Shown here: positions 52,773 to 63,758 of the stretch, piece by piece
Numbering within the stretch: position 1 is the first letter of the stretch
How the letters are laid out: the number at the start of each line of letters is the position of its first letter
DNA from: Acidobacteriota bacterium
GTDB lineage: Bacteria; Acidobacteriota; Vicinamibacteria; Vicinamibacterales; UBA2999
NCBI GenBank assembly: GCA_031376505.1
Contig: JANMDX010000017.1
Coordinates: 49,172-113,171, forward strand
DNA: 64,000 bases
Direction of reading: 5' to 3'
The notes under the pieces: model-generated
What the model saw: only the letters and a program-made list of their open reading frames with translations
The model's database searches: none
Told to the model about the DNA's origin: nothing
Program-made: the position numbers and the translations under genes

Positions 52773-54536
52773 CTACTGCAGGACTGGCGAGGTGTCGCCA
52801 GGCAGCAGCAGTTGGCGATGCGCCCAGAGCGGCGCGATGCCGTTGGCCATCACCTGCTCATGGAACTCGCGCAGGTTGAAAGCCGCACCGCGCGCGGCCT
52901 TCACATCGGCGCGCAGCTTCAGCAAAGCCAGCTTCCCCAGGAAGTAGCCGCCGTAGGTGGGGTCGTAGGTGCCGCGCTCGGCCTCCTGCCGCGCGGCTGG
53001 CACCGGCAGATGGGCCCGCGTCTCGAAGAGCGTGGCCGCCTGCTCGACGGTCCACACGCCGGTGTGTTGCTGAATGCCCGAGATCAGCCGGCAGATCCGC
53101 GTGAGCGCCTCGCTCGCCTGCGCCATGCGGTAGCGCGGGTCGGCGGCGCGGAAGCCTTCGTCGAGCATCATCTGCTCGGCGTAGTGGGCCCACCCGTCTT
53201 GCCCGGACGAGGGCTGCGGGAAGGGGTTGAGGCCGATCCAGATGCGGCGGATTTTTCCCGGCGTCTCGCGCATGAACACGCTGTGCACGTAGTGCCCGGG
53301 CATCACTTCGTGCGCGCTCATCACGGTGAGGGTCGGGATGTTGAACTTCTGCAGCCACGCGTCCTGGCGCGCGGCATCCCACCCGGCCTGCGCGTCGGTC
53401 ACATAGAAATAACTCTTCACCGGCGTGAGCTCGAGCGGCGGCGACGAGTGCATCGACGCCAAGCCCAGGTCGAACGGCGGCGCGGCCGCCACGATCACGC
53501 GCTCGCTCGGCGGCAGCGTGACGAGCTGCTTCTCCACCACGAAGGCCTGCAGCTGGTCGACGGCCTGCTGGGCCGCCGGCACGAGTTCGCCCCGCGCCGG
53601 ATGATTGGCAAGCACGTCCTTCCACACCGTCAGCGCCGGACGCTTCGGGTCGGCCTTGGCGGCCGCGGCGACGAACGCGGCCTCCTGCACCACGAGCTCG
53701 CGCTCGCCGATCGCCAGGAGCTGCGCGGCGGACAGGTCGATCAGCTCCTCGGCCCGGTAGCGCGCCTCGAGGTTGTCCTTTCCCACCGCATACGGGGCGT
53801 TGGCCGTGGGCAGGCGTTCCTGCTCGAACCACGCGACGAAGGTGTCGATCTCGCTCGCGGCCGACGACGTGGCGGCCAGCAGTCCGCCTTTGAGCGTGGT
53901 GTCCGTGAGGCCGGCGAAGGCGAGCGGAACATCAGCCGTCAGCATCCCCGATGCGCCACGCAACATGCGCACGCCGCGCTCAGCCATCACCTTCGGCGGC
54001 GCCGTGATGTTCGCGCGAGCAGCGGCCAGGAGCGACGGCACGCCGCGCAGCTTCGCGATGATCCGCCGCGCGCGCACGTCGGCGGGCGACGACTCCATCG
54101 TCATCAGGTTGTGCACGCCGTCGGACATGGCCGCGGCGTAGAGCATCAGGTTCTTTTGCCAGTTGCGGTTCGCCTCGAGCTCGAGCAGCCAGCCGTCGAT
54201 GAGGCCAGCCGCAATCCGGTGATCCACGCGTTGGTCTGGCGTGAGCGGCTCGACCGGAATCGCGGCCAACCGCGTGCGCAAGCCCTTCCACGCCTCGACC
54301 TCGGCCATGATGGCCAGCGCGCTGAAGTCCTCGAGCCGGTCGTCGTGCAGGTGCAGGCCGTTTCCGGCGGCAATCGACGGATGGCGTTCGGCGAAGTGGG
54401 CCAGGAACGCGTCGACGAACACCTCGAACCGTTCGGGCGCCGGGGCCGGATCGGGGGCCGGCGCGCACGCCGGTAGAGACAACAGCAGCACGACGATCGA
54501 TGATCGGCACACAGCGTATCGGGACATGCCACGCAT
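52773..54536 (-). CDS. DUF885 family protein (lipoprotein)
   Basis: Lipobox LLSLPACA. The DUF885 pattern includes the metallopeptidase-like HEVMPGHYVH. Confidence 0.85.
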   Translation of the reverse strand: MRGMSRYAVCRSSIVVLLLSLPACAPAPDPAPAPERFEVFVDAFLAHFAERHPSIAAGNGLHLHDDRLEDFSALAIMAEVEAWKGLRTRLAAIPVEPLTPDQRVDHRIAAGLIDGWLLELEANRNWQKNLMLYAAAMSDGVHNLMTMESSPADVRARRIIAKLRGVPSLLAAARANITAPPKVMAERGVRMLRGASGMLTADVPLAFAGLTDTTLKGGLLAATSSAASEIDTFVAWFEQERLPTANAPYAVGKDNLEARYRAEELIDLSAAQLLAIGERELVVQEAAFVAAAAKADPKRPALTVWKDVLANHPARGELVPAAQQAVDQLQAFVVEKQLVTLPPSERVIVAAAPPFDLGLASMHSSPPLELTPVKSYFYVTDAQAGWDAARQDAWLQKFNIPTLTVMSAHEVMPGHYVHSVFMRETPGKIRRIWIGLNPFPQPSSGQDGWAHYAEQMMLDEGFRAADPRYRMAQASEALTRICRLISGIQQHTGVWTVEQAATLFETRAHLPVPAARQEAERGTYDPTYGGYFLGKLALLKLRADVKAARGAAFNLREFHEQVMANGIAPLWAHRQLLLPGDTSPVLQ

Positions 54537-54610: not shown

Positions 54611-55327
54611 TCAACCGCGGCGAAATCGTCGGAACGTGGCCACCGCGACGAACCAGTCGCGCGCGCCGATCTTCTTCCCTTCGGCCTTGCTCCGGGGGAA
54701 GTAGCTGATCGGCACTTCGACGATCTGACGGCCCTGCGCCAGCATCTTGGCCGAGATCTCGTGGTCCAGTTCGAAACCGCTCGTCTCGAGCGAGACGGAC
54801 CGAATGGCCTCGTGGCTGAACAGCTTCAGTGCCGTGACCGTGTCGGTGAGGTAACGACCCGTGCACAGCCAGCAGGCCACGCTCAAGCTGCGCCCGCCAA
54901 GGTACGCCGCCCACGACTGTCCGGGATGCCGCCCCGTGCTGAAGACGCCGGCCCCGGGCCGCCGCATGTAGCGGCTGCCGTAGACCACGTCCACGCCGCG
55001 ATCGAGCAGCGCGTCGAGCATGGGCACGTAGTCGTTCGGGTCGTACTCGAGGTCCGCGTCCTGGATGATGACGAAGTCGCCGGTGGCGCGCGCAATCCCG
55101 GCCCGTACGGCCCCGCCCTTTCCGCCGTTCTTCGTGAGGCGCACCAGCGTGACGCCGGGGACGGCCGCGGCGATGTCGGCCGTGCGATCCTTGGAGCAGT
55201 CATCGACCACGATAATCTCGGTGGCGAGCCCGCGCTGCGAGAGATCGACCGCGGCCACGCGCTCTAGCAGGGCGGCAATGAACCGCTCTTCGTTGTAGGC
55301 CGGGATGACGACGCTAAGCGTGGGCAT
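54611..55327 (-). CDS. Glycosyltransferase family 2 (polyprenyl-phosphate sugar synthase-like)
   Basis: LSVVIPAYNEE, VVDDCSKDRT, QDADLEYDP (DxD), and C-terminal EVPISYFPRSKAEGKK typical of the DPM1/GtrB-like branch. Confidence 0.8.
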   Translation of the reverse strand: MPTLSVVIPAYNEERFIAALLERVAAVDLSQRGLATEIIVVDDCSKDRTADIAAAVPGVTLVRLTKNGGKGGAVRAGIARATGDFVIIQDADLEYDPNDYVPMLDALLDRGVDVVYGSRYMRRPGAGVFSTGRHPGQSWAAYLGGRSLSVACWLCTGRYLTDTVTALKLFSHEAIRSVSLETSGFELDHEISAKMLAQGRQIVEVPISYFPRSKAEGKKIGARDWFVAVATFRRFRRG

Positions 55328-56063
55328 GGCGCAGGTGCGACTCCATCAGGGTCAGGTCTTCAGGTGTGTTGACGCCGAGGGCTTCGATGGCGGAGGCGGC
55401 GGCGAACGTCTCGACGCGCGTACGCGCGGCCGCCCACGGCACGAAGGGCAGAAAATTTCGTTCGCGGCTCTCCGCGCCCACCACGGCCGACTCGGGCGCC
55501 GCCAGATAGGCGGGCAACCACTGCAGGCATGCGGTTCGCGACAGGCGGAACAACCCGATGTCCGACTCGCCCACGGCGGGCATCTCGTCGCCCTCGCGTC
55601 GCTGTAGCACGCGTGCGATGCGGCCGCCCGCATCGCGCGCGTAGTGCACATAGGGCGGCGCCGTCGTCATCGTGGGCATCACGACGTCCGTGCCAGCGTC
55701 GTGCGCGACGAGGCGGGTCACGGTCGCCGCGGTCACGCCGATCTGGTCGCACCACGTCACCACGACCTGATCGGCGTGGCCTGCCGCCACGGGCGGCAGA
55801 CCGCACACGACGGCGTCGAGCATGCCGGTCGGCGTCTCCTGCACCACGATCTCTGCGGGCAGCGCCCAATGGCGGCTGTGCGCCTCGAACCGCTCGCGGT
55901 GCTCGGGGTGGACGACGAGCACGACGCCCTCGACCACGTCGCCGTAGAGACCGACGAGGTGATCGATCATCGGTTGCCCGTTGACGGGCACGAGGGCCTT
56001 CGGCAGGTCGGCGCGCAAGCGCGACCCGCGGCCGGCAGCGGGCACGAGCAACAGGCGGCGCAT
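55314..56063 (-). CDS. MobA/GlmU-like NTP-transferase (nucleotidyltransferase)
   Basis: LLVPAAGRGSRLRADLPKALVPVNGQPMIDHLV is the signature N terminus of sugar-phosphate / MobA-like nucleotidyltransferases. 14-nt overlap with the downstream GT2. Confidence 0.75.
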   Translation of the reverse strand: MRRLLLVPAAGRGSRLRADLPKALVPVNGQPMIDHLVGLYGDVVEGVVLVVHPEHRERFEAHSRHWALPAEIVVQETPTGMLDAVVCGLPPVAAGHADQVVVTWCDQIGVTAATVTRLVAHDAGTDVVMPTMTTAPPYVHYARDAGGRIARVLQRREGDEMPAVGESDIGLFRLSRTACLQWLPAYLAAPESAVVGAESRERNFLPFVPWAAARTRVETFAAASAIEALGVNTPEDLTLMESHLRHAHA

Positions 56064-56064
56064 G

Positions 56065-58056
56065 CTAGCGTCCGGTCACCAGGCGAGCCAGCCAGCGCAG
56101 ACCCTCGCCCACCGTGGTGCGTTGCTCGATCTCGGTCGAGATCGGGAAGAACTGGACGGGCGTCTCGATGAGATCGGCCTTGGCCGCGAGCAGGCGGTTC
56201 AACACGCGGTGGTTGAAGCCGGAATCGGCCGGGTCGCCGCCGGCGCCGAGCACGAACGAGGTGCGCACGGCGCGAATGCCCGACAACGTGTCCGACACGT
56301 AGCGGCCGAACCGGAGGAGATACGCGAGGCTCAGCAGATGACTGCCCAGGTAGCTCACCTGCCCGAGCACCGGATGGTTGCGGTAGCGCTCGCGGTACGA
56401 CGCGCGGATGTCCTTCACCGACAGGCGGCGGCTGCCCCACACCGCGTCGAGCCGGCGGTTCGTGAGCAGCGACGCGATGTTCACGATGTCCTCGCCCCGG
56501 TACATCCCCGACGAGTCGCACAGCAGGACGTAGTCGCTGCCAAGGGCCTCGGTCGCCTGGCGGAAGCTCGCAGCCGGAGAGGTGCCGGGCGCGGCGACGT
56601 TCATCACGTCGCACGGCATGAGCTTGCAGAAGTCCGCATCGAGCTGTTCCTTGCTGTGGTAGAGCACGGTGATGGCCGGCTCGAGCTGGTCGAGTCCCGC
56701 CCGCACGGCCTCGAGCAGCGTCTGGCACACCTTGTCGACCGACCCGGTCGCCAGCAGCCACACGACCACGCGCTGGCGCTCGGGCCGCGCCACGAGGCTC
56801 TCGACAAACGGGCCGAGCACCTTGTTTGCGTCGTGCCGGCCCGTGCTGCCGTCCTCGTAGTTGGCGACGCGCACCAGGCGGGGATCCTCGAGCGCCTCGA
56901 GCCGGCCGAGCGGCACGTAGGGGCGATCGACATCGGCGCTGCGGCTGTCGTTGAGCAGGTAATGGGAAATGAGTCGCGGTGTGCGGATAGCCAGGCGCCC
57001 GCGGTCCTTCAGGTAGTGCACGGCGCGCTCGATGATCTCGACGGCACTCGCATCAGCCGTGTCGGCGTCTTCGTGCAGGTTGGTCACGAGCAGCTTGATC
57101 GCGCGCAGGTTCGACGCAATGGCCGTGCCCAGCCCGGGCGTGAGGTATGACGGCAACAGCGACGAGTGCTGCGTGCCCGGGGCATAAATGATGAGATCGG
57201 CGTCGCGAATGAGTTCAAGCACGCGCGGGTTGAGGGCCGGCATGACGGCGCGGTCGCGCAGGAACGCCTCGATGCGATCGAGCGGTGCCTCGGCAAGGGC
57301 GGCGCGTTCCTCGGCCGTCACTTCCCGGTCGAGGAGCGCGATGTCCCGAATCTTGTGGCGGTGGCCTGCCGCCACGATGTCGGCTTCGCTGGCCAGCAGG
57401 TGGTAGGCGTCGTCGACCGCCACGAGGAACGCGTTGGTGCCATCCGTGACGTTCTGCACCATCTCGGGCGGGACGCCGAGCAGCGCGCAGTAATCGGCGA
57501 CGCCGTCGTTGAAGTGCCGCCCCGCGTGCAGAAAGCTCCCCGCGAAGACCAGGTTGCCGAGGGCGCAGTCGGCAAACGGCAGCGATCGGCCCGAGCTCGT
57601 CTCTTCGTCGAGAAAGTGCCGTAGCCGCGTCGAGACCGCGCCGCGCGACGCCGGAGCCACGCGGGTCCACTCGTCGAGCCACTCCTGCTGCCAGGGCGCT
57701 GCCGCAGCCATGCCGCCCGTGGCAAGCAGCGCGATGAACGCCCGCCCCTCGTCGTTCCCGATGCCGGCGGGCAGGCGGCGATCGAGCAGGTGCACCAGCG
57801 GCGCGGGCGCCGACGACAGCGCGTGTGCCAGATTCGACGCGTTCTTTCGAAAATCCGATGGCCCCAGGCAATCGCCGAGCAGACGCCGAACGTCGCCCGT
57901 CGACGCGCCGTCGTCGTAGCCGTTGATGACCAGAGCGAGCCGCACGCGGTCGTTGGCAACCAGTTGGCGCGACAATGCGCCCGACCCCCGTCCGCCCGAG
58001 AACAAGACGACGTGGACGTGGTCGCGGGGCTCACCGGACGGTGCAGGGGGACGCAT
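56065..58056 (-). CDS. Fusion protein: CofD/YvcK (UPF0052)-like N-terminal domain plus GT2-like C-terminal domain
   Basis: 663 aa. The N terminus VVLFSGGRGSGALSRQL...LALVINGYDDGASTGDVRRLLG...GPSDFRKN...LIIYAPGTQHSSLLPSYL follows the CofD-family pattern. The last roughly 230 aa (VVVWLLATG...YVLLCDSSGMY...ETPVQFFPIS) look like a divergent GT2 fold. Confidence 0.6.
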   Translation of the reverse strand: MRPPAPSGEPRDHVHVVLFSGGRGSGALSRQLVANDRVRLALVINGYDDGASTGDVRRLLGDCLGPSDFRKNASNLAHALSSAPAPLVHLLDRRLPAGIGNDEGRAFIALLATGGMAAAAPWQQEWLDEWTRVAPASRGAVSTRLRHFLDEETSSGRSLPFADCALGNLVFAGSFLHAGRHFNDGVADYCALLGVPPEMVQNVTDGTNAFLVAVDDAYHLLASEADIVAAGHRHKIRDIALLDREVTAEERAALAEAPLDRIEAFLRDRAVMPALNPRVLELIRDADLIIYAPGTQHSSLLPSYLTPGLGTAIASNLRAIKLLVTNLHEDADTADASAVEIIERAVHYLKDRGRLAIRTPRLISHYLLNDSRSADVDRPYVPLGRLEALEDPRLVRVANYEDGSTGRHDANKVLGPFVESLVARPERQRVVVWLLATGSVDKVCQTLLEAVRAGLDQLEPAITVLYHSKEQLDADFCKLMPCDVMNVAAPGTSPAASFRQATEALGSDYVLLCDSSGMYRGEDIVNIASLLTNRRLDAVWGSRRLSVKDIRASYRERYRNHPVLGQVSYLGSHLLSLAYLLRFGRYVSDTLSGIRAVRTSFVLGAGGDPADSGFNHRVLNRLLAAKADLIETPVQFFPISTEIEQRTTVGEGLRWLARLVTGR

Positions 58057-58074
58057 ATGTGAACGGAGCGGCCG

Positions 58075-59382
58075 CTACGCGCGTGCCTGCCAGCTCGGCG
58101 CACGATACGTGGCGAACCACTGCTGTCTATGATGCGCGAGGAAGATCGCCGTCAGCAACAACGGCAGGCTCTTGACGCAGGCCAGCAAAGTAGGGAGCGC
58201 AACGCCGTCGGCGGGCACGAACGTGCGAATCACGTTGATGACTACGATGTTCTGCACCACGCAGGCACCCAAGGCCGCACAGAGCAGCAGCCGCGCCTGC
58301 GGCGACAACTGCCCCCGCACGGCCAGCAGGTAGGTCCACAGCGGCAGCAGCAGCGCGAGATAGTGTTCCCACACCACCTGCGACAGCAGCAGGGCGCCGG
58401 TGATGGCCAGCAGCATGTGGCAATGACGTCGCGCGGCCGCCGGCGCATCGAGCGTACGGGCCTGCCACGCGGTGTACCCCACGAGGCCCGCCACGACCAG
58501 CTTCGCCAGCAGCACGCCGGCGTTCACCGGCGCGACCCAGGCCGGCCCGGCCGCCTTCAGGCTCTCGCCGACGACGTAGAGCGAGCTGTTGAACGGCCAG
58601 CCAAAGCCGCCCTGGGCGCCCCGGCGTACCACATCGAGGAACTCCAGGTGCAGCGGAATGCCGATCCAGGCTACCGCCCCAAGCGCCGTGGCGCCGCCCA
58701 CGACGGCCAGGGCCACAGGCACGCGCCACGTCGATGGCACGAGCAGCCACGCTGGCACGAGGGCAAAGGCCGGCTTCACGAGACAGGCGACGACCGTCGT
58801 CGCCGCCATCGCCCAGACGCGGCCGCGCACATGGGCGCGCAGCGCCAGCGTGAACAGCAGGAGCACGAACGGCGTCGTCTGCCCGCCTACGCGGTAGATG
58901 GCCCAGATCGGCTGGAACACGAGCACGCCCGCGGCCACACCGAGGGTGAACCGGTCGCGGGCCGCAGAATCAGGACCCGCGTGAGGACGATGTTCGAGCA
59001 CGAGGAGCCAGAGCGCGACCATCCACGCCACCGTTCCACATAGCTTGAAAAGGGCAAGCGCAACCAGGGGAGGCAGCAGCGCCAGGGGCACGTAGAAGTA
59101 CGCCGACAGCGGGGGGCTCCAATACGCCATGCTCCCCTGTGGCTGCGCTCCGTCAATCAGGCGATCCGGATGATAGATGTCGGCTAACTGACCCGCAGCG
59201 GCACGTCGGCCGGTGTCGTAGAAGTTGGCGAAATCCCAGCCAGGCCCGGCGGGCACCAGCACTCCCACCGCGGCCAGAACGACAATCAGGAACGTGATCC
59301 ACCGAAGGGCCGGTCCGCCAGCGGGCAGCATGGCGCCGGCCGGTGCGGAGAGCGAAGGTGCTGTGGTGGCAGGACCGGACAT
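58075..59382 (-). CDS. Polytopic GT-C type glycosyltransferase (DUF2029 / GT87-like)
   Basis: 435 aa, about 10 or more TM segments. The first periplasmic-loop motif WDFANFYDTGRRAAAGQLADIY resembles the D..Y...A.....G...Y loop of polyprenyl-phosphate-sugar-dependent GT87 enzymes. Confidence 0.55.
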   Translation of the reverse strand: MSGPATTAPSLSAPAGAMLPAGGPALRWITFLIVVLAAVGVLVPAGPGWDFANFYDTGRRAAAGQLADIYHPDRLIDGAQPQGSMAYWSPPLSAYFYVPLALLPPLVALALFKLCGTVAWMVALWLLVLEHRPHAGPDSAARDRFTLGVAAGVLVFQPIWAIYRVGGQTTPFVLLLFTLALRAHVRGRVWAMAATTVVACLVKPAFALVPAWLLVPSTWRVPVALAVVGGATALGAVAWIGIPLHLEFLDVVRRGAQGGFGWPFNSSLYVVGESLKAAGPAWVAPVNAGVLLAKLVVAGLVGYTAWQARTLDAPAAARRHCHMLLAITGALLLSQVVWEHYLALLLPLWTYLLAVRGQLSPQARLLLCAALGACVVQNIVVINVIRTFVPADGVALPTLLACVKSLPLLLTAIFLAHHRQQWFATYRAPSWQARA

Positions 59383-59467: not shown

Positions 59468-61015
59468 CTAGAACATCGACGACTTGAGCCGGGCCGACAC
59501 TTTCGCCAGTCCCTTCACCGACGGCGTGCGGTTGGGCGTGCGCAGCAGTGACTGCTCGAACGCCGCCGCGGCGTCCTTGTCGCGGCCTGCGTCAGCCAGT
59601 AACTCGGCGTACAGCTCAAACGCCGGCTTGATCGGATCTGGCGGACCCGACGGCGCCTCCATCGTCAGTTCCACATCCGCGGCGCCCTTGGCCAGCGCGA
59701 GCGCTTCTTCTTTCTGTCCCTTGGCCCAGCGGATGATCGCGCCAAGTTCCTTCTCGCGGACGGCGTGCGGACGCACCGCATAGGCGTTCGGGCCGCCTTG
59801 CGCGCGTTCGCGAATGGCCTTGAGCTGCGCCTCGGCGGCGTCGGCCGTGGCCAGGTCGCCGAGCTTCGCGGCGCTGACCCCCACGATGTAGATCCAGGTC
59901 GCCGAGCCCTGTGACGGGCCCATGTTCATACCCGGCATGGCGGCGTGGTCGCCGGCGGCGGCGGGCACGGCCGCGGCAGGAAGCTCGAGCTTCTCCCACT
60001 GTCCCGCCTCCTGGATGTGACGCGCGCGCATCCCCAGGTAGCCGTCCTTGATGCCGGCGTTCATCGGATTGCGGTCGGCCGCCTGCCTGGCGAGCTCCAC
60101 CGTCTTTTTCGACTCGGCGAAATCCCCGAGCATCTGATGCGCGTAGCCGAGCCAGCCGAGCGTGTGGAAGTCCTCGCGGCCTTCGGCCAGCTTCATCTTC
60201 GCATTCAGATCGATCGCCGCCTTGTAGGCCACGATGTTCGACTGCTTCACCTGCTCCCACATCCCACGCTGCACATAGATGTGCGACGGCATATGGAGCG
60301 CGTGCGCGGCCGACGGCGCGATCTTCGCGTAGGCGTTGGCGGCTTCGAGCGCCAGCGGCGCGTGGTCGGGGTCGTCGAACGAGTGAATGATGAAGTGTGC
60401 CGCGCCGGGATGGTTCGGGTTGGCCTTGAAGATCTTCTCTGCAATCGACGCCGCGAGCGCCTGCCGGCGGTACCCCGCATCGCCGGGGCGCACGCTGCCG
60501 AGGAGCGACAGGGCGTAGAGCGTGCCCACTTCGTTGTCGTCGGGATACTGCTCGTACATCCTCGCCATCGCGGCGGCGTAAGCGAGGTCGCGAGCCAGCT
60601 TGTCGCCCGGCGCGAAGTAGAGCACCTGCTGGGCCTCGAGAAATGCTTTCTCCTTCGGCAGCTTTGCCTTGGCCAGCCGCGCCTCGTGGGTCGGCGCAAG
60701 GCGGTCGAGCGCCTCTTTCGCCTTCGCGATGTCCTGCTGCGCCCACAGCGGATGGTTGTGGCTCATGGCCTCGCCCCAGTAGGCCATCGCAAACTGCGGG
60801 TCAGCCGCCTCAGCCTGCTTGAAGGCCACGGCCGCTTCATCGAACTGGAAGTTGTGGAGGGCCTTGACGCCAGTGAGGAACGCGTCCTGCGCCGCCGCGG
60901 CCCCCGAAGTGGGAAAGCTGATCGACCCGAACTGCTGGGTAGTCGGCCGTGCCGACAAGCAGAGCAGCGCCACCGCTCCAACCACAAACGCCGAGGTCGA
61001 ACGCACACGAACCAT
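59468..61015 (-). CDS. Secreted tetratricopeptide-repeat protein
   Basis: Signal peptide present. Repeated A..Y/W...G helical pairs (FKQAEAADPQFAMAYWGEAMS, and others). Confidence 0.65.
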   Translation of the reverse strand: MVRVRSTSAFVVGAVALLCLSARPTTQQFGSISFPTSGAAAAQDAFLTGVKALHNFQFDEAAVAFKQAEAADPQFAMAYWGEAMSHNHPLWAQQDIAKAKEALDRLAPTHEARLAKAKLPKEKAFLEAQQVLYFAPGDKLARDLAYAAAMARMYEQYPDDNEVGTLYALSLLGSVRPGDAGYRRQALAASIAEKIFKANPNHPGAAHFIIHSFDDPDHAPLALEAANAYAKIAPSAAHALHMPSHIYVQRGMWEQVKQSNIVAYKAAIDLNAKMKLAEGREDFHTLGWLGYAHQMLGDFAESKKTVELARQAADRNPMNAGIKDGYLGMRARHIQEAGQWEKLELPAAAVPAAAGDHAAMPGMNMGPSQGSATWIYIVGVSAAKLGDLATADAAEAQLKAIRERAQGGPNAYAVRPHAVREKELGAIIRWAKGQKEEALALAKGAADVELTMEAPSGPPDPIKPAFELYAELLADAGRDKDAAAAFEQSLLRTPNRTPSVKGLAKVSARLKSSMF

Positions 61016-61076: not shown

Positions 61077-61844
61077 TTACACCCGACCGCGACGGCCCCT
61101 GCCCACGCGCAGTTCCAGCAGCCGGGCCGGGCCTTCAGTGACCACCGCCAGCCGCGACCGGCTCACAAACGCCAGGCCTTCGGGCCGTTCCTTGTCCTCG
61201 AGCGGCAGGTCAAAGGTGGACACGAGCTGCAGGGCGCCGCCCTCCAACCGTAGCACGGCGAGCCGACGGCTGGCCTCCGACAAGACGACCAGCAGGCCGG
61301 TCACGGGATCGACTGCCACGTCGGCGAGGTCGTCGAGCGCGTCCTTGGCCGCCCGCGGCAGCTTCAGCTCATGGATCTGCGAGAGATCCGCCAGCGAGAA
61401 CACACACACGCAGCGCGGCTTGTGCTCGTGCACGGCGACGAGCGCGGCGCGGCGGGTGCCCGTGAACCTGGCGGGCAGATAGGCCACGCCCTCGAACCCC
61501 TTGTTGGCGCGCGAGCCCGGCCGCCTCAGGCGCCCGACCCGCCGCACGGCCGGCCGCGCGCCGCGCACCGCCAGTTCCACCAGCACACCGCTCTCTTCAG
61601 AAATCGCCCACACGACAGTGCCCGGCTCGTTGGCGGCAATGCCTTCGAGGTCTCCCAACGCGGGGTGCAGATCGGGTCCGGCCCAGAGGGTGGCCGTGGC
61701 GCCACGGAGCCGGTAGATCCCGAGGTCGTCTTCCACGATCAGGAGCCCGGCACGCGATTTGGCCACGCCGCTGGCGCCCCGCAGTGGCAGGGACCGCACC
61801 GAGGCGAACGCAAAACGCAGCGAATCGGTGGTGGACGGCGGCAT
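61077..61844 (-). CDS. Hypothetical beta-propeller-like protein (YjiK/SdiA-regulated-like impression)
   Basis: 255 aa with repeated (F/L/P)EG(I/V/L)A blades (LEGIAAN, FEGVAYL, PEGLAFV). Weak call. Confidence 0.3.
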   Translation of the reverse strand: MPPSTTDSLRFAFASVRSLPLRGASGVAKSRAGLLIVEDDLGIYRLRGATATLWAGPDLHPALGDLEGIAANEPGTVVWAISEESGVLVELAVRGARPAVRRVGRLRRPGSRANKGFEGVAYLPARFTGTRRAALVAVHEHKPRCVCVFSLADLSQIHELKLPRAAKDALDDLADVAVDPVTGLLVVLSEASRRLAVLRLEGGALQLVSTFDLPLEDKERPEGLAFVSRSRLAVVTEGPARLLELRVGRGRRGRV

Positions 61845-61934
61845 GCGGGGCTGGCGCGACGCCGCGTGGACAGCGGTGGTCCAGGACGTCTTGCTCCTAT
61901 ACTCTACACACTCAATTTCCCTGGGAGCCTATCG

Positions 61935-63758
61935 ATGCGCACACGCACCCTGTTCACGGCGTCAGCATTCGTGCTCGCGGCCGGCACCGCGCTGGTCGTC
62001 GGCCAGCAGCAAGCGGCCGAGGCGCCCGCGTCGAGCCGGCCCGCGATGACCCGGCCCGCCGTGGCGGGACGCCACGGCCTGGTCACAAGCGGGCATCCCA
62101 TCGTGTCGTCGGCCGGCCTGCAGATCCTGCTCAAGGGCGGGAACGCGTTCGATGCGGTCGCGGCCGTGGGCGCCATGGCCGCGCTCGGCGAACCTGAAAT
62201 GAACGGCATCGGCGGCAACGGCTTCATGACCGTCTTTCACAAGGCGACGGGCAAGGTCTGGTCGCTGTCGATGGCGGGGGCGGCCCCCAAGGCGCTCGTG
62301 CCCGCCGAGATGACGCCCGACCTGCTGAACGCGGGCATGAAGGCGGGCATCACGCCGGGCAACATCGGCGGCTATCTGTCGATCATCGAGCGCTACGGCA
62401 CGATGACCCTCGCCGAGGTGTTCGCGCCGGCTATTGAATACGCCGAGCAGGGCTACCCAATCGATCCGATGCTGGCGCAATCGATCGCGCGCGGCGCCAA
62501 GAACCTGTCGCAGTACCCCACGACCGCGAAAATCTTCATGCCGAACGGCGTGGCCCTCAAAGCCGGCGACTTGCTGAAGAATCCCGACTACGCCGCCACG
62601 CTCCGCAAGCTCGTCGAGGCCGAAACGCAGGCCAAGGCCAAGGGCGCCACGCGCGAGGCCGCGATTCGCGCCGCGTTCGACCGGTTCTACAAAGGCGACA
62701 TCGCGCAAGAATTCGAGCGTTTCTTCAAGGCCAACGGCGGCGTGCTCACGGCCGCCGATTTGGCGGCCTACGCGCCGCAGTGGACCGAGCCGCTGCACAC
62801 GGTCTACCGCGGGCACGACGTCTACAGCAACCCGGCCACTTCGCGCGGCGGGTTCGAAGTGCTCATGGGTGCCAACCTGATCGAGGCCGTCGATCTGAAA
62901 GCGGCCGGCGCCAACTCGGCCGCCGCGCTGCACGCGGTGATCGAGTCGATCAAGATCTCGAAGGCCGACATCTACCGCTACGTTGCGGACCCGGCATTCG
63001 TGAAAGTGCCGACGGCCGGCCTGATGTCGCGCGAGTTCACGACCGCGCGCCGCGCGCTGTTTGACCCCACCAAGGCCATTGCGTATCCGCCGCCCGGCGT
63101 TCCCGATGGCAGTACCGCCACCTCGCAACGCGCGGCGGGTCCGGCCTTCGATGAGGCCTACGACCCCGAGCAGCACACCACCTCGTTCTCGGTGCTCGAC
63201 CGCTTCGGCAACGCCGTGGGCGTCACGCCGACGCTGGGCGGACTCTTCGGCAGCAATGTCGTGGTCGGCAACACGGGGCTGCTGCTCAACAACGGCATGC
63301 GTCTCGGCTCCACGTCGCCCTACCCCACCGACGTCAACTACGTGGGCGCGGGCAAGATTCCCGTGCTGAACAACTCGCCGGTCGTCGTACTGAAGGACGG
63401 CAAGCTCGCCTACGTGTTCGGCACGCCCGGCGGCGAGACCATCGGGCAAACCGAGTTCCAGGTGCTGCTCAACCTCGTGGACTTCGACATGCCGGTGCAG
63501 GCCGCCATCGAGGCGCCGCGTCTGTCGCTCGACGCCAAGCCCAACTTCTACAAGCCGGGCGCCGCGATCACGGTGCAGATTGAAGGGCGTGTGCCCGCGG
63601 CCACGATTGCCGCGCTGAAGGCCATGGGTCACATCGTGGAGGTGCTGCCCGGCTGGGGCAGCCTGGGCCACATGCAAGTCATCCGCGTCGACCAGAAGAC
63701 CGGCGCCATGACGGCCGGCGCCGACCCGCGTCGCACCGGCTACGCGATGGGGTACTGA
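61935..63758 (+). CDS. ggt: Gamma-glutamyltransferase
   Basis: Trimmed to MRTRTLFTASAFVLAAG (signal). GGNAFDAVAAV, autoprocessing Thr region EQHTTSFSVLD, and GTPGGETIGQ. Confidence 0.9.
   Translation: MRTRTLFTASAFVLAAGTALVVGQQQAAEAPASSRPAMTRPAVAGRHGLVTSGHPIVSSAGLQILLKGGNAFDAVAAVGAMAALGEPEMNGIGGNGFMTVFHKATGKVWSLSMAGAAPKALVPAEMTPDLLNAGMKAGITPGNIGGYLSIIERYGTMTLAEVFAPAIEYAEQGYPIDPMLAQSIARGAKNLSQYPTTAKIFMPNGVALKAGDLLKNPDYAATLRKLVEAETQAKAKGATREAAIRAAFDRFYKGDIAQEFERFFKANGGVLTAADLAAYAPQWTEPLHTVYRGHDVYSNPATSRGGFEVLMGANLIEAVDLKAAGANSAAALHAVIESIKISKADIYRYVADPAFVKVPTAGLMSREFTTARRALFDPTKAIAYPPPGVPDGSTATSQRAAGPAFDEAYDPEQHTTSFSVLDRFGNAVGVTPTLGGLFGSNVVVGNTGLLLNNGMRLGSTSPYPTDVNYVGAGKIPVLNNSPVVVLKDGKLAYVFGTPGGETIGQTEFQVLLNLVDFDMPVQAAIEAPRLSLDAKPNFYKPGAAITVQIEGRVPAATIAALKAMGHIVEVLPGWGSLGHMQVIRVDQKTGAMTAGADPRRTGYAMGY

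Follow-up and report, generated by a model that had tools for sequence, protein, structure and literature searches.

We describe four adjacent genes on the minus strand of a 64,000-nucleotide stretch of DNA from a Vicinamibacterales member of the Acidobacteriota (assembly GCA_031376505.1, contig JANMDX010000017.1, positions 49,172 to 113,171 of the forward strand; the whole stretch is hereafter called the window). They encode a polytopic protein of glycosyltransferase family GT87, a protein in which a YvcK/CofD-superfamily domain is joined to a GT2-like domain (hereafter the fusion protein), a nucleotidyltransferase (NT) and a stand-alone GT2 enzyme of the DPM1/PpgS/AglJ type. Judging from family relationships and gene context, these four genes probably make up one operon for a conserved envelope-glycosylation module that would work via a polyprenyl-phosphate carrier. 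We found that the genes for the fusion protein, the NT and the stand-alone GT2 occur together across phyla far beyond chance, whereas GT87 can be exchanged for other membrane proteins and lies outside the conserved core. The fuller reading, in which such a module also carries out a CofD-type phosphotransfer on a lipid-linked intermediate, is held at somewhat less than even confidence and is weighed against its rivals below.

Distribution and conserved core of the module

A word-index search gave over 1,800 hits for the fusion family, which forms 334 clusters at 50% identity (E<=1e-30) and occupies 410 loci in species-representative genomes. Its members were found in Acidobacteriota, Gemmatimonadota (Gemmatimonadales), Nitrospirota (Nitrospirales), a Calditrichota-like group (Calditrichaceae) and several proteobacterial lineages, and metagenome-assembled genomes were the source of all 80 listed loci (of the 410). 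Synteny was counted by tblastn in 55 species-representative loci with at least 4 kb of sequence on both sides. A GT2 orthologue was located within 4 kb of the fusion gene in all 55 loci and the NT gene in 54 of them, whereas GT87 was observed upstream of the fusion gene in 20 (36%). At least one large polytopic membrane family was present in 48 loci; these partners, some of them GT-C-like, include PMT_2 GT-C enzymes, an AftB-like family and several unannotated families. In 20 loci, a HAD gene of the beta-phosphoglucomutase family was inserted between the fusion gene and the NT gene.

As a control, metagenome contigs were scanned with a GT2 profile, and the matches listed were mostly paralogues with 35-44% identity. 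Among these matches, none of the 76 metagenomic loci with GT2 relatives of at most 44% identity held the fusion gene or the NT gene; loci with a GT2 at 46-69% identity and with upstream sequence (L086, L087 and L088) did hold both. Therefore, the synteny counts and the paralogue control define the conserved core as the fusion protein, the NT and the stand-alone GT2, each of them cytoplasmic or peripheral. A first-pass annotation of this DNA had treated the four genes as a unit; their co-conservation was observed for the three core genes but not for GT87, which is replaced elsewhere.

Further evidence came from single polypeptides. NT, CofD-like and GT2 domains were joined in one protein in five of the 50%-identity clusters (P0147, P0148, P0156, P0162 and P0170) and also in contig L086. 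Another protein (P0213, 1,148 residues) has the order HAD-NT-CofD-GT2, with a GT2 of the QDADLEY type like that of the stand-alone enzyme, and a protein with nine transmembrane (TM) segments is encoded immediately upstream of it. In locus L168, the gene order is HAD, NT-CofD-GT2 and GT2. In one instance only, a representative protein that could be a gene-calling artefact (P0129, 1283 residues), the CofD-like domain and degenerate GT2 are joined C-terminally to a 9-TM domain of an unannotated family usually found beside the module in Vicinamibacterales. The fusions show that a single membrane-located pathway employs the HAD protein and the GT2 as well as the NT and the CofD-like domain. Thus, the functional coupling of the NT with the CofD-like domain, which the first-pass annotation had proposed by analogy with CofC and CofD, is borne out by the single polypeptides of other lineages, and core synteny and fusions together tie this pair to polyprenyl-phosphate glycosyl transfer, apart from F420.

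The fusion protein

The fusion protein contains no TM segment. Its residues 16-371 match the Pfam CofD family PF01933 (E 6.8e-16; 58.7 bits versus a cut-off of 30), and a helical insert of about 65 residues is located at about residues 95-160. Among the NCBIfam models, CofD_rel_GAK (2e-20, 73.5 bits) and the YvcK model TIGR01826 (2.4e-16, 60.1 bits) were matched far under their cut-offs (340 and 196, respectively), and no model named for CofD/FbiA was matched at E<=0.01. A family-profile search of PDB returned only YvcK-type chains for this domain (2ppv, 2hzb and 2o2z). The same three structures came out on top when the AlphaFold model of the protein (predicted local distance difference test score, pLDDT, 79.7) was searched with Foldseek: the YvcK-type 2hzb was matched with E 5.5e-14 and a TMt of 0.73, compared with E 1.3e-6 and 0.59 for CofD (3c3e) and E 2.2e-6 and 0.50 for FbiA (6uvx). 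Thus, the N-terminal domain is nearer to YvcK/GlmR than to CofD, by sequence as well as by fold.

Three acidic, putatively catalytic residues (D48, D49 and D68) and the YDDGxSTG motif were invariant in the 62 sequences aligned. By motif alone, D48-D49 map to D40/D41 of GlmR, and D48/D49 and D68 lie in the motifs that match those of the metal-binding Asp pair of FbiA (D45, D57). Mutation of D40/D41 in GlmR, together with N198, lowers activity about 100-fold (PMC10128056), and the Asp pair of FbiA binds the catalytic metal (PMC7253369). In addition, the segment encoded at 56836-56947 (residues 370-408, PYVPLGRLExLEDPRLVRIGNYEEGxTGRHDA) is among the most conserved of the family and may be a mobile loop that becomes ordered on substrate, partner or membrane. 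In public annotation, this protein (P0001, 636 residues) starts 27 codons later than the ATG at 58056, leaving out positions 57976-58056. Family alignment backs the upstream ATG, and the deposited start is probably wrong because it omits the invariant VVLFSGGRGS (GGRGS) motif.

The C-terminal domain of the fusion protein has no Pfam GT2 match. It is related to the adjacent stand-alone GT2 (BLASTP E 8e-15, 25% identity), and its Foldseek matches were ArnC (9asc), DPMS (5mlz) and GtrB (9nye). Residues were placed by alignment to the stand-alone GT2 and, through it, to D89ADLQH94 of the Pyrococcus furiosus DPMS (PfDPMS). In this alignment (D/E)SSGMY occupies the place of DADL(Q/E)(H/Y), with the metal ligands D91 and Q93 of PfDPMS becoming S516 and M518; PxYNE has become LLATGS, DDxSxD is lost, and equivalents of DPMS E12, D39, D91 and Q93 are absent. 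On the other hand, the fold and the GSR motif are retained, and so are the equivalents of R117 (R543), which in DPMS positions the lipid phosphate, and of D89 and H94 ((D/E)514 and Y519). Invariant residues of the domain include SSGMY, W540-G-S-R543-R544-L-S, D589 and R646-T647. It appears that the fused GT2 of this clade has lost the metal/nucleotide-sugar side of the pocket and has retained the lipid-phosphate and sugar side.

The position of the DXD motif reads FESSGMY or CDSSGMY in this clade. In the wider CofD-GT2 family (about 85 full-length representative clusters), xxxDGEY or QDADLEY is kept in most members together with PxLNE, and the FESSGMY/WGSRR clade is a derived minority. A role of the degenerate GT2 as a lipid-sugar binding module would be limited to this clade, because most relatives keep an apparently active GT2.

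The nucleotidyltransferase, the stand-alone GT2 and GT87

The NT has neither a TM segment nor the C-terminal left-handed beta-helix acetyltransferase domain of GlmU. It matches Pfam NTP_transf_3 (E 6.7e-21), and a profile built from 30 orthologues aligns end to end with the pyrophosphorylase/uridyltransferase domain of GlmU (E 8.8e-24), with RmlA and IspD at about 1e-8; no CofC/FbiD chain was present among the best 60 of 90 PDB matches, and no CofC Pfam match was obtained at E<=0.01. The NCBIfam GlmU models scored 57-65 bits (cut-offs 367-666). Invariant positions in the orthologues are PAAGxGxRL..K, K22, Q75, D106, E157 and N232, the last five being the equivalents of GlmU K25, Q76, D105, E154 and N227. 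The NT probably acts on a sugar-1-phosphate, which is a likelier substrate than a small phospho-acid because the enzyme is GlmU-like and not CofC-like.

The stand-alone GT2, which also has no TM segment, matches Pfam Glycos_transf_2 (E 3.1e-34), and its best solved relative is the P. furiosus DPMS 5mlz (E 1.6e-20, residues 4-221). It keeps the PAYNE, DDxSxD, QDADLEY and GSRY motifs together with equivalents of DPMS E12, D39, D89, D91, R117, R131 and S135, and Q89-D-A-D-L-E-Y95 is invariant in 22 orthologues. The protein is 60-70% identical across phyla, with a mean column identity of 70%. It is an intact GT2 and a putative polyprenyl-phosphate glycosyltransferase.

GT87, a protein of the DUF2029/PimE type, was matched by Pfam PF09594 over profile positions 4-236 of 237 (E 2.6e-12; 47.5 bits versus a cut-off of 25) and has about nine hydrophobic segments. 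The motif W49-D50-F-x-N-F-Y-D56, located after the first TM helix, is invariant in 17 orthologues, and no PDB match was obtained by sequence or profile search. This protein is the candidate for a local, exchangeable, periplasmic GT-C-like transferase of the module.

Taken together, Pfam, BLASTP and Foldseek upheld the domain calls of the first-pass annotation for all four genes, with refinements for two of the proteins. The N-terminal domain, described there as CofD/YvcK-like, does belong to the CofD superfamily in sequence and fold according to sensitive profile and structure searches, but YvcK-type structures are much closer to it than CofD. The GT2-like domain of the fusion protein has the GT-A fold and the likeness to ArnC, DPMS and GtrB, but its metal and donor motifs are degenerate here. 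For the NT, the MobA/GlmU-like assignment stood, whereas the CofC logic attached to it found no CofC match. The DPM1/GtrB-like assignment of the stand-alone GT2 agreed with an alignment to DPMS over the full catalytic domain and with complete catalytic and acceptor motifs.

Operon structure and neighboring genes

The four open reading frames (ORFs) and their junctions were read directly from the DNA, with the same coordinates and spacings as in the first-pass annotation (Table 1). GT87 and the fusion gene are separated by 18 nt, the fusion and NT genes by 1 nt (TAG C ATG), and the NT and GT2 genes overlap by 14 nt (ATGCCCACGCTTAG). With such spacing, the fusion, NT and GT2 genes are translationally coupled. 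Homologues of all four genes are present in other genomes with 40-85% identity, showing that the genes are real; the nearest relatives of the window proteins, with 77-83% identity, belong to uncultured Acidobacteriota/Vicinamibacterales. The G+C content of the window is about 69%, and a scan for sigma-70-type promoters and intrinsic terminators gave nothing above background. No second copy of any module component was detected by tblastn elsewhere in the 64-kb window, and the four genes therefore represent a minimal version of the system.

Table 1. Positions of the four genes and of selected sites in the window (all on the minus strand).
Feature	Position	Strand	Basis
GT87 gene	58075-59382	minus	Pfam PF09594, topology and motif
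CofD-GT2 fusion gene (663 residues; soluble or peripheral)	56065-58056	minus	Pfam, Foldseek, BLASTP
N-terminal YvcK/CofD-superfamily domain (about residues 14-420)	56797-58017	minus	Pfam, PDB profile, Foldseek
D48-D49 of NGYDDGxSTG motif, putative catalytic/metal site	57910-57915	minus	Invariance
C-terminal GT-A (DPM1/ArnC/GtrB-like) domain (about residues 428-663)	56068-56775	minus	BLASTP, Foldseek
Degenerate "DXD" segment D514-S-S-G-M-Y519	56500-56517	minus	Alignment to GT2 and PfDPMS
NT gene (249 residues)	55314-56063	minus	Pfam NTP_transf_3, GlmU profile match
Stand-alone GT2 gene, DPM1/PpgS/AglJ type (238 residues)	54611-55327	minus	Pfam GT2, DPMS alignment
Canonical D90-A-D92 (DXD) of stand-alone GT2	55052-55060	minus	Invariance, PfDPMS alignment
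Coupling junctions, fusion/NT and NT/GT2	56064; 55314-55327	minus	Read from DNA letters

Two flanking genes were considered as members of the system and rejected. The upstream gene (59468-61015), encoding a secreted tetratricopeptide repeat-like protein of 515 residues, and the downstream DUF885 gene (52773-54536) are each conserved beside the operon only in the closest relative (L001). Farther upstream, a long ORF for a gamma-glutamyltranspeptidase (61371-63758, plus strand) overlaps a gene for an SdiA-regulated/phytase-like protein (61077-61844, minus strand) by about 470 nt; its start is probably near 62.1 kb because the Pfam match begins at residue 251.

Several additional observations were made in related loci. 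In the low-GC metagenomic contig L086, one in-frame TAA (1276-1278) breaks the otherwise continuous NT-CofD-GT2 frame while homology runs across it; stop-codon recoding, a pseudogene or an error of sequencing could account for this. Genes for radical S-adenosylmethionine (SAM) proteins, often with SPASM or B12-binding domains, recur beside the module in distant lineages (for example, L083 15838-16992; L165 1173-3319 and 12673-14193; L168 3913-6368). A 386-residue radical SAM family (for example, L079 6304-7464) was present in 22 of the 55 GTDB loci, and a methyltransferase gene is located near the module in L165 and L168. These neighbors hint that the sugar or the carrier is modified further. 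Proteins of the sulfatase superfamily whose N-terminal part is a block of TM helices (EptA/LtaS-like) adjoin GT87 or the fusion gene in 9 of the 55 loci and gave weak matches to phosphoethanolamine transferases (for example, L084 6713-8548 and L027 2130-4028). In Blastocatellia loci (L083 19804-20760 and flanks), the module lies inside a larger island with a decaprenyl-phosphate phosphoribosyltransferase homologue (over the NCBIfam cut-off), PMT_2 GT-C enzymes, a Wzx-like flippase, a polysaccharide deacetylase and a PRK07208-type flavin adenine dinucleotide (FAD) oxidoreductase, which recalls the mycobacterial decaprenyl-phosphoarabinose (DPA) pathway.

Discussion

A working scheme for the module can be proposed as follows. 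The NT would convert a sugar-1-phosphate to a nucleoside diphosphate (NDP)-sugar, and in a third of lineages the HAD protein of the beta-phosphoglucomutase family may supply or trim the sugar phosphate. At the inner membrane face, the stand-alone GT2 would put a sugar on polyprenyl phosphate, and the GT2-like domain would dock the fusion protein at the membrane. The YvcK/CofD-like domain would then act on the NDP-activated compound made by the NT, most likely by a CofD-type phosphotransfer, with nucleoside monophosphate (NMP) leaving, onto a lipid-linked intermediate. After flipping, GT87 would pass the (modified) sugar to a periplasmic or surface acceptor.

The specific phosphodiester step in this scheme is put forward tentatively. 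It is suggested by the chemistry of CofD/FbiA, in which the acceptor attacks the beta-phosphate of NDP-X directly and NMP leaves (PMC7253369), by the NT-CofD fusions with their likeness to the CofC/CofD pair, and by the retained lipid-phosphate/sugar side of the degenerate GT2 pocket; the CofC/FbiD product, enolpyruvyl-diphospho-5'-guanosine (EPPG), is unstable (PMC7253369). If so, the YvcK/CofD-like domain may represent a new phosphotransferase class that acts at the membrane interface during glycan assembly, a possibility to which we give a minority share of our confidence. With similar reserve, such an enzyme might use the NDP-activated product of its partner NT and, releasing NMP, join a sugar-1-phosphate or a phospho-X either to the carrier or to a sugar that polyprenyl phosphate already bears. 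The product might conceivably be a lipid donor with a phosphodiester bridge or a diphosphate link, for delivery to the envelope by GT-C enzymes, which we regard as equally speculative.

Several points weigh against a CofD-type phosphotransfer. The N-terminal domain is closer to YvcK/GlmR than to CofD, and the activities reported for YvcK/GlmR are UDP-sugar binding, stimulation of GlmS and uridylyl transfer rather than the making of a phosphodiester (PMC5482804, PMC10128056). The NT could merely feed the stand-alone GT2, leaving the CofD-like domain without a dedicated donor. In addition, the fused GT2 is apparently active in most of the wider family, no flippase gene was found in the operon, and the conserved residues 370-408 are modeled with low confidence (pLDDT below 50).

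In a possible, though not favored, explanation, the NT, the GT2 and the GT-C enzymes carry out ordinary three-component lipid-carrier glycosylation, and the fusion protein adds no glycan chemistry but is a GlmR-like UDP-sugar-binding regulator, an accessory nucleotidyltransferase or a scaffold. Its dead GT2 domain would then hetero-oligomerize with the active GT2. Such a role is consistent with the nearness of the N-terminal domain to YvcK/GlmR in sequence and fold, with the UDP-sugar binding and uridyltransferase activity of GlmR (PMC5482804, PMC10128056), with the loss of the metal ligands of the fused GT2 in this clade, and with the fact that the related ArnC and GtrB have been solved as oligomers (according to PDB entry titles); moreover, the GlmU-like NT and the beta-phosphoglucomutase-family HAD would together be enough to feed the GT2. 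However, a second nucleotidyltransferase would be redundant with the constant, and sometimes fused, NT, most members of the wider family have a seemingly active fused GT2, and the usual yvcJ/whiA context was not found around the operon. The degenerate domain is also strongly constrained (SSGMY, WGSRRLS, D589, R646-T647), which argues for ligand binding or catalysis over a mere scaffold.

Alternatively, the fusion protein might itself be a new carrier-loading enzyme, in which polyprenyl phosphate attacks the beta-phosphate of an NDP-sugar to give polyprenyl-PP-sugar and NMP, as in the chemistry of phosphoglycosyl transferases; this appears improbable. No more probable is its variant, in which free polyprenol attacks to give polyprenyl-P-sugar with the anomeric configuration retained. 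The GT2-like domain would serve as the lipid site in both. The attack on the beta-phosphate with NMP leaving is known from CofD/FbiA (PMC7253369), the NT is fused to or located beside the CofD-like domain, the C-terminal domain keeps the DPMS R117 equivalent while its donor site is lost, and no classical phosphoglycosyl transferase gene is present in the operon or its flanks. On the other hand, the minimal operon is without enzymes to extend, flip or ligate a PP-linked glycan, the donors used by GT87/PMT_2-type GT-C enzymes are monophosphate-linked, an intact DPM1-type GT2 that would already make polyprenyl-P-sugar is always present, and the fused GT2 keeps its own donor site in most relatives. 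A divergent CofD/CofC pair for F420 or a related deazaflavin cofactor, which the place of the N-terminal domain in PF01933 and the adjoining NT might bring to mind, is by far the least plausible explanation. Only CofD_rel_GAK and YvcK matched, below cut-offs, and the CofD/FbiA family model was unmatched at E<=0.01; structures of the YvcK type are far nearer than those of CofD/FbiA, and the NT, which has no CofC Pfam match, aligns with GlmU over its full length. The domain never occurs without its GT2 partner domain, and its gene neighbors encode glycosyltransferases and polytopic membrane proteins. As the first-pass annotation had remarked, F420 genes are not nearby: there is none among the 13 annotated genes surrounding the operon (Pfam and NCBIfam; nine ORFs Pfam-scanned together with precomputed Pfam hits), and the cofC/fbiD, cofE/fbiB and fbiC/cofGH families were absent from these 13 genes and from the related loci examined. 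We reject F420 biosynthesis on the scores of the family models, the order of the fold matches, the GlmU-like character of the NT and the gene context around the operon.

Comparison with known systems helps to place the proposed envelope-glycosylation module. Like the Gtr (GtrA-GtrB-Gtr(type)), ArnC-ArnT, Ppm1-PimE and PpgS-Rv3779 systems, the module combines a DPM1-type GT2 with a GT-C-type partner, and in both one would expect loading in the cytoplasm and then transfer in the periplasm. Lipid-bound sugars are known to be modified in the 4-amino-4-deoxy-L-arabinose (Ara4N) and DPA pathways, which provide a precedent. Unlike these systems, the module has an obligatory YvcK/CofD-superfamily enzyme fused to a second GT2-type domain and a dedicated GlmU-like NT; its GT2 has no membrane anchor and its GT-C partner is exchangeable. 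Moreover, in contrast with the Gtr and Arn systems, its operon holds no GtrA- or ArnE/F-like flippase gene. Of the three Gtr components, the GT2 and the GT-C enzyme are present and the GtrA-like flippase is not, and no small GtrA-like membrane protein was found in or beside the operon.

The pairing of a nucleotidyltransferase with a CofD-superfamily domain is shared with CofC/CofD (FbiD/FbiA), and some module lineages fuse the two. The acidic residues that map, by motif alone, to the metal ligands of FbiA are invariant, and the proposed step (NDP-X + acceptor -> acceptor-P-X + NMP) would be CofD chemistry. In contrast with CofC/CofD, the N-terminal domain of the module is nearer to YvcK and fused to a GT2, the NT resembles GlmU and not CofC, and the gene neighborhood points to envelope glycosylation and holds no Fo/F420 genes. 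With YvcK/GlmR (UPF0052) of Firmicutes and Actinobacteria, the N-terminal domain has the GGxG, DDGxS(T/S)G, GNL and PG(S/T)xxxS motifs in common, and both are tied to nucleotide-sugars. However, YvcK/GlmR is a single domain of about 320 residues in a yvcJ-yvcK-whiA context, whereas the fusion protein has 663 residues, two domains and glycosyltransferase neighbors, the additions being the helical insert of about 65 residues and a GT2 domain of about 240 residues. LicC/LicD, the Stealth hexose-1-phosphate transferases and PglC/WecA, which use NT-made NDP-X, release NMP and create phosphodiester or diphosphate links in envelope glycans, offer a functional analogy only to the proposed step, with no kinship in sequence or fold. 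Judged by those families' own models, the module proteins lie outside CofD/FbiA, YvcK/GlmR, GlmU and CofC.

We found no published description of the fusion architecture and no characterized member in the literature on CofD/YvcK-like genes in glycan clusters, in agreement with the first-pass annotation, which knew of no described pathway with this combination. The nearest mention concerns Mycoplasma fermentans PG18, in which an island of possibly clostridial origin contains a GT2 synthase, a split CofD-family gene and an NDP-nucleotidyltransferase (PMC11658790), and may be a distant echo of the association of NT, CofD-like domain and GT2.

In general, our results place a widespread, unstudied enzyme architecture, a YvcK/CofD-type domain joined to a GT2-like domain, at the core of an envelope module. 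A member of the poorly understood YvcK/GlmR-CofD superfamily thereby gains a concrete biochemical setting, with an NT of its own, GT-C enzymes and a polyprenyl-phosphate GT2 as partners. If the fusion protein is a GlmR-like regulator, it would be a new example in which nucleotide-sugar sensing is wired directly to lipid-carrier loading. If its CofD-like domain does a job of the LicD, Stealth or PglC type, it would be an independent and undescribed solution to that task. If the CofD-type reaction takes place, the fusion proteins would be a new class of enzymes that form phosphodiesters or diphosphates on sugars carried by a lipid, would provide clues to the envelope glycans of abundant soil phyla, and would offer a lead on the chemistry open to YvcK/GlmR proteins; as a phosphotransferase, the domain would give the YvcK/GlmR branch of the CofD superfamily its first clear catalytic paradigm.

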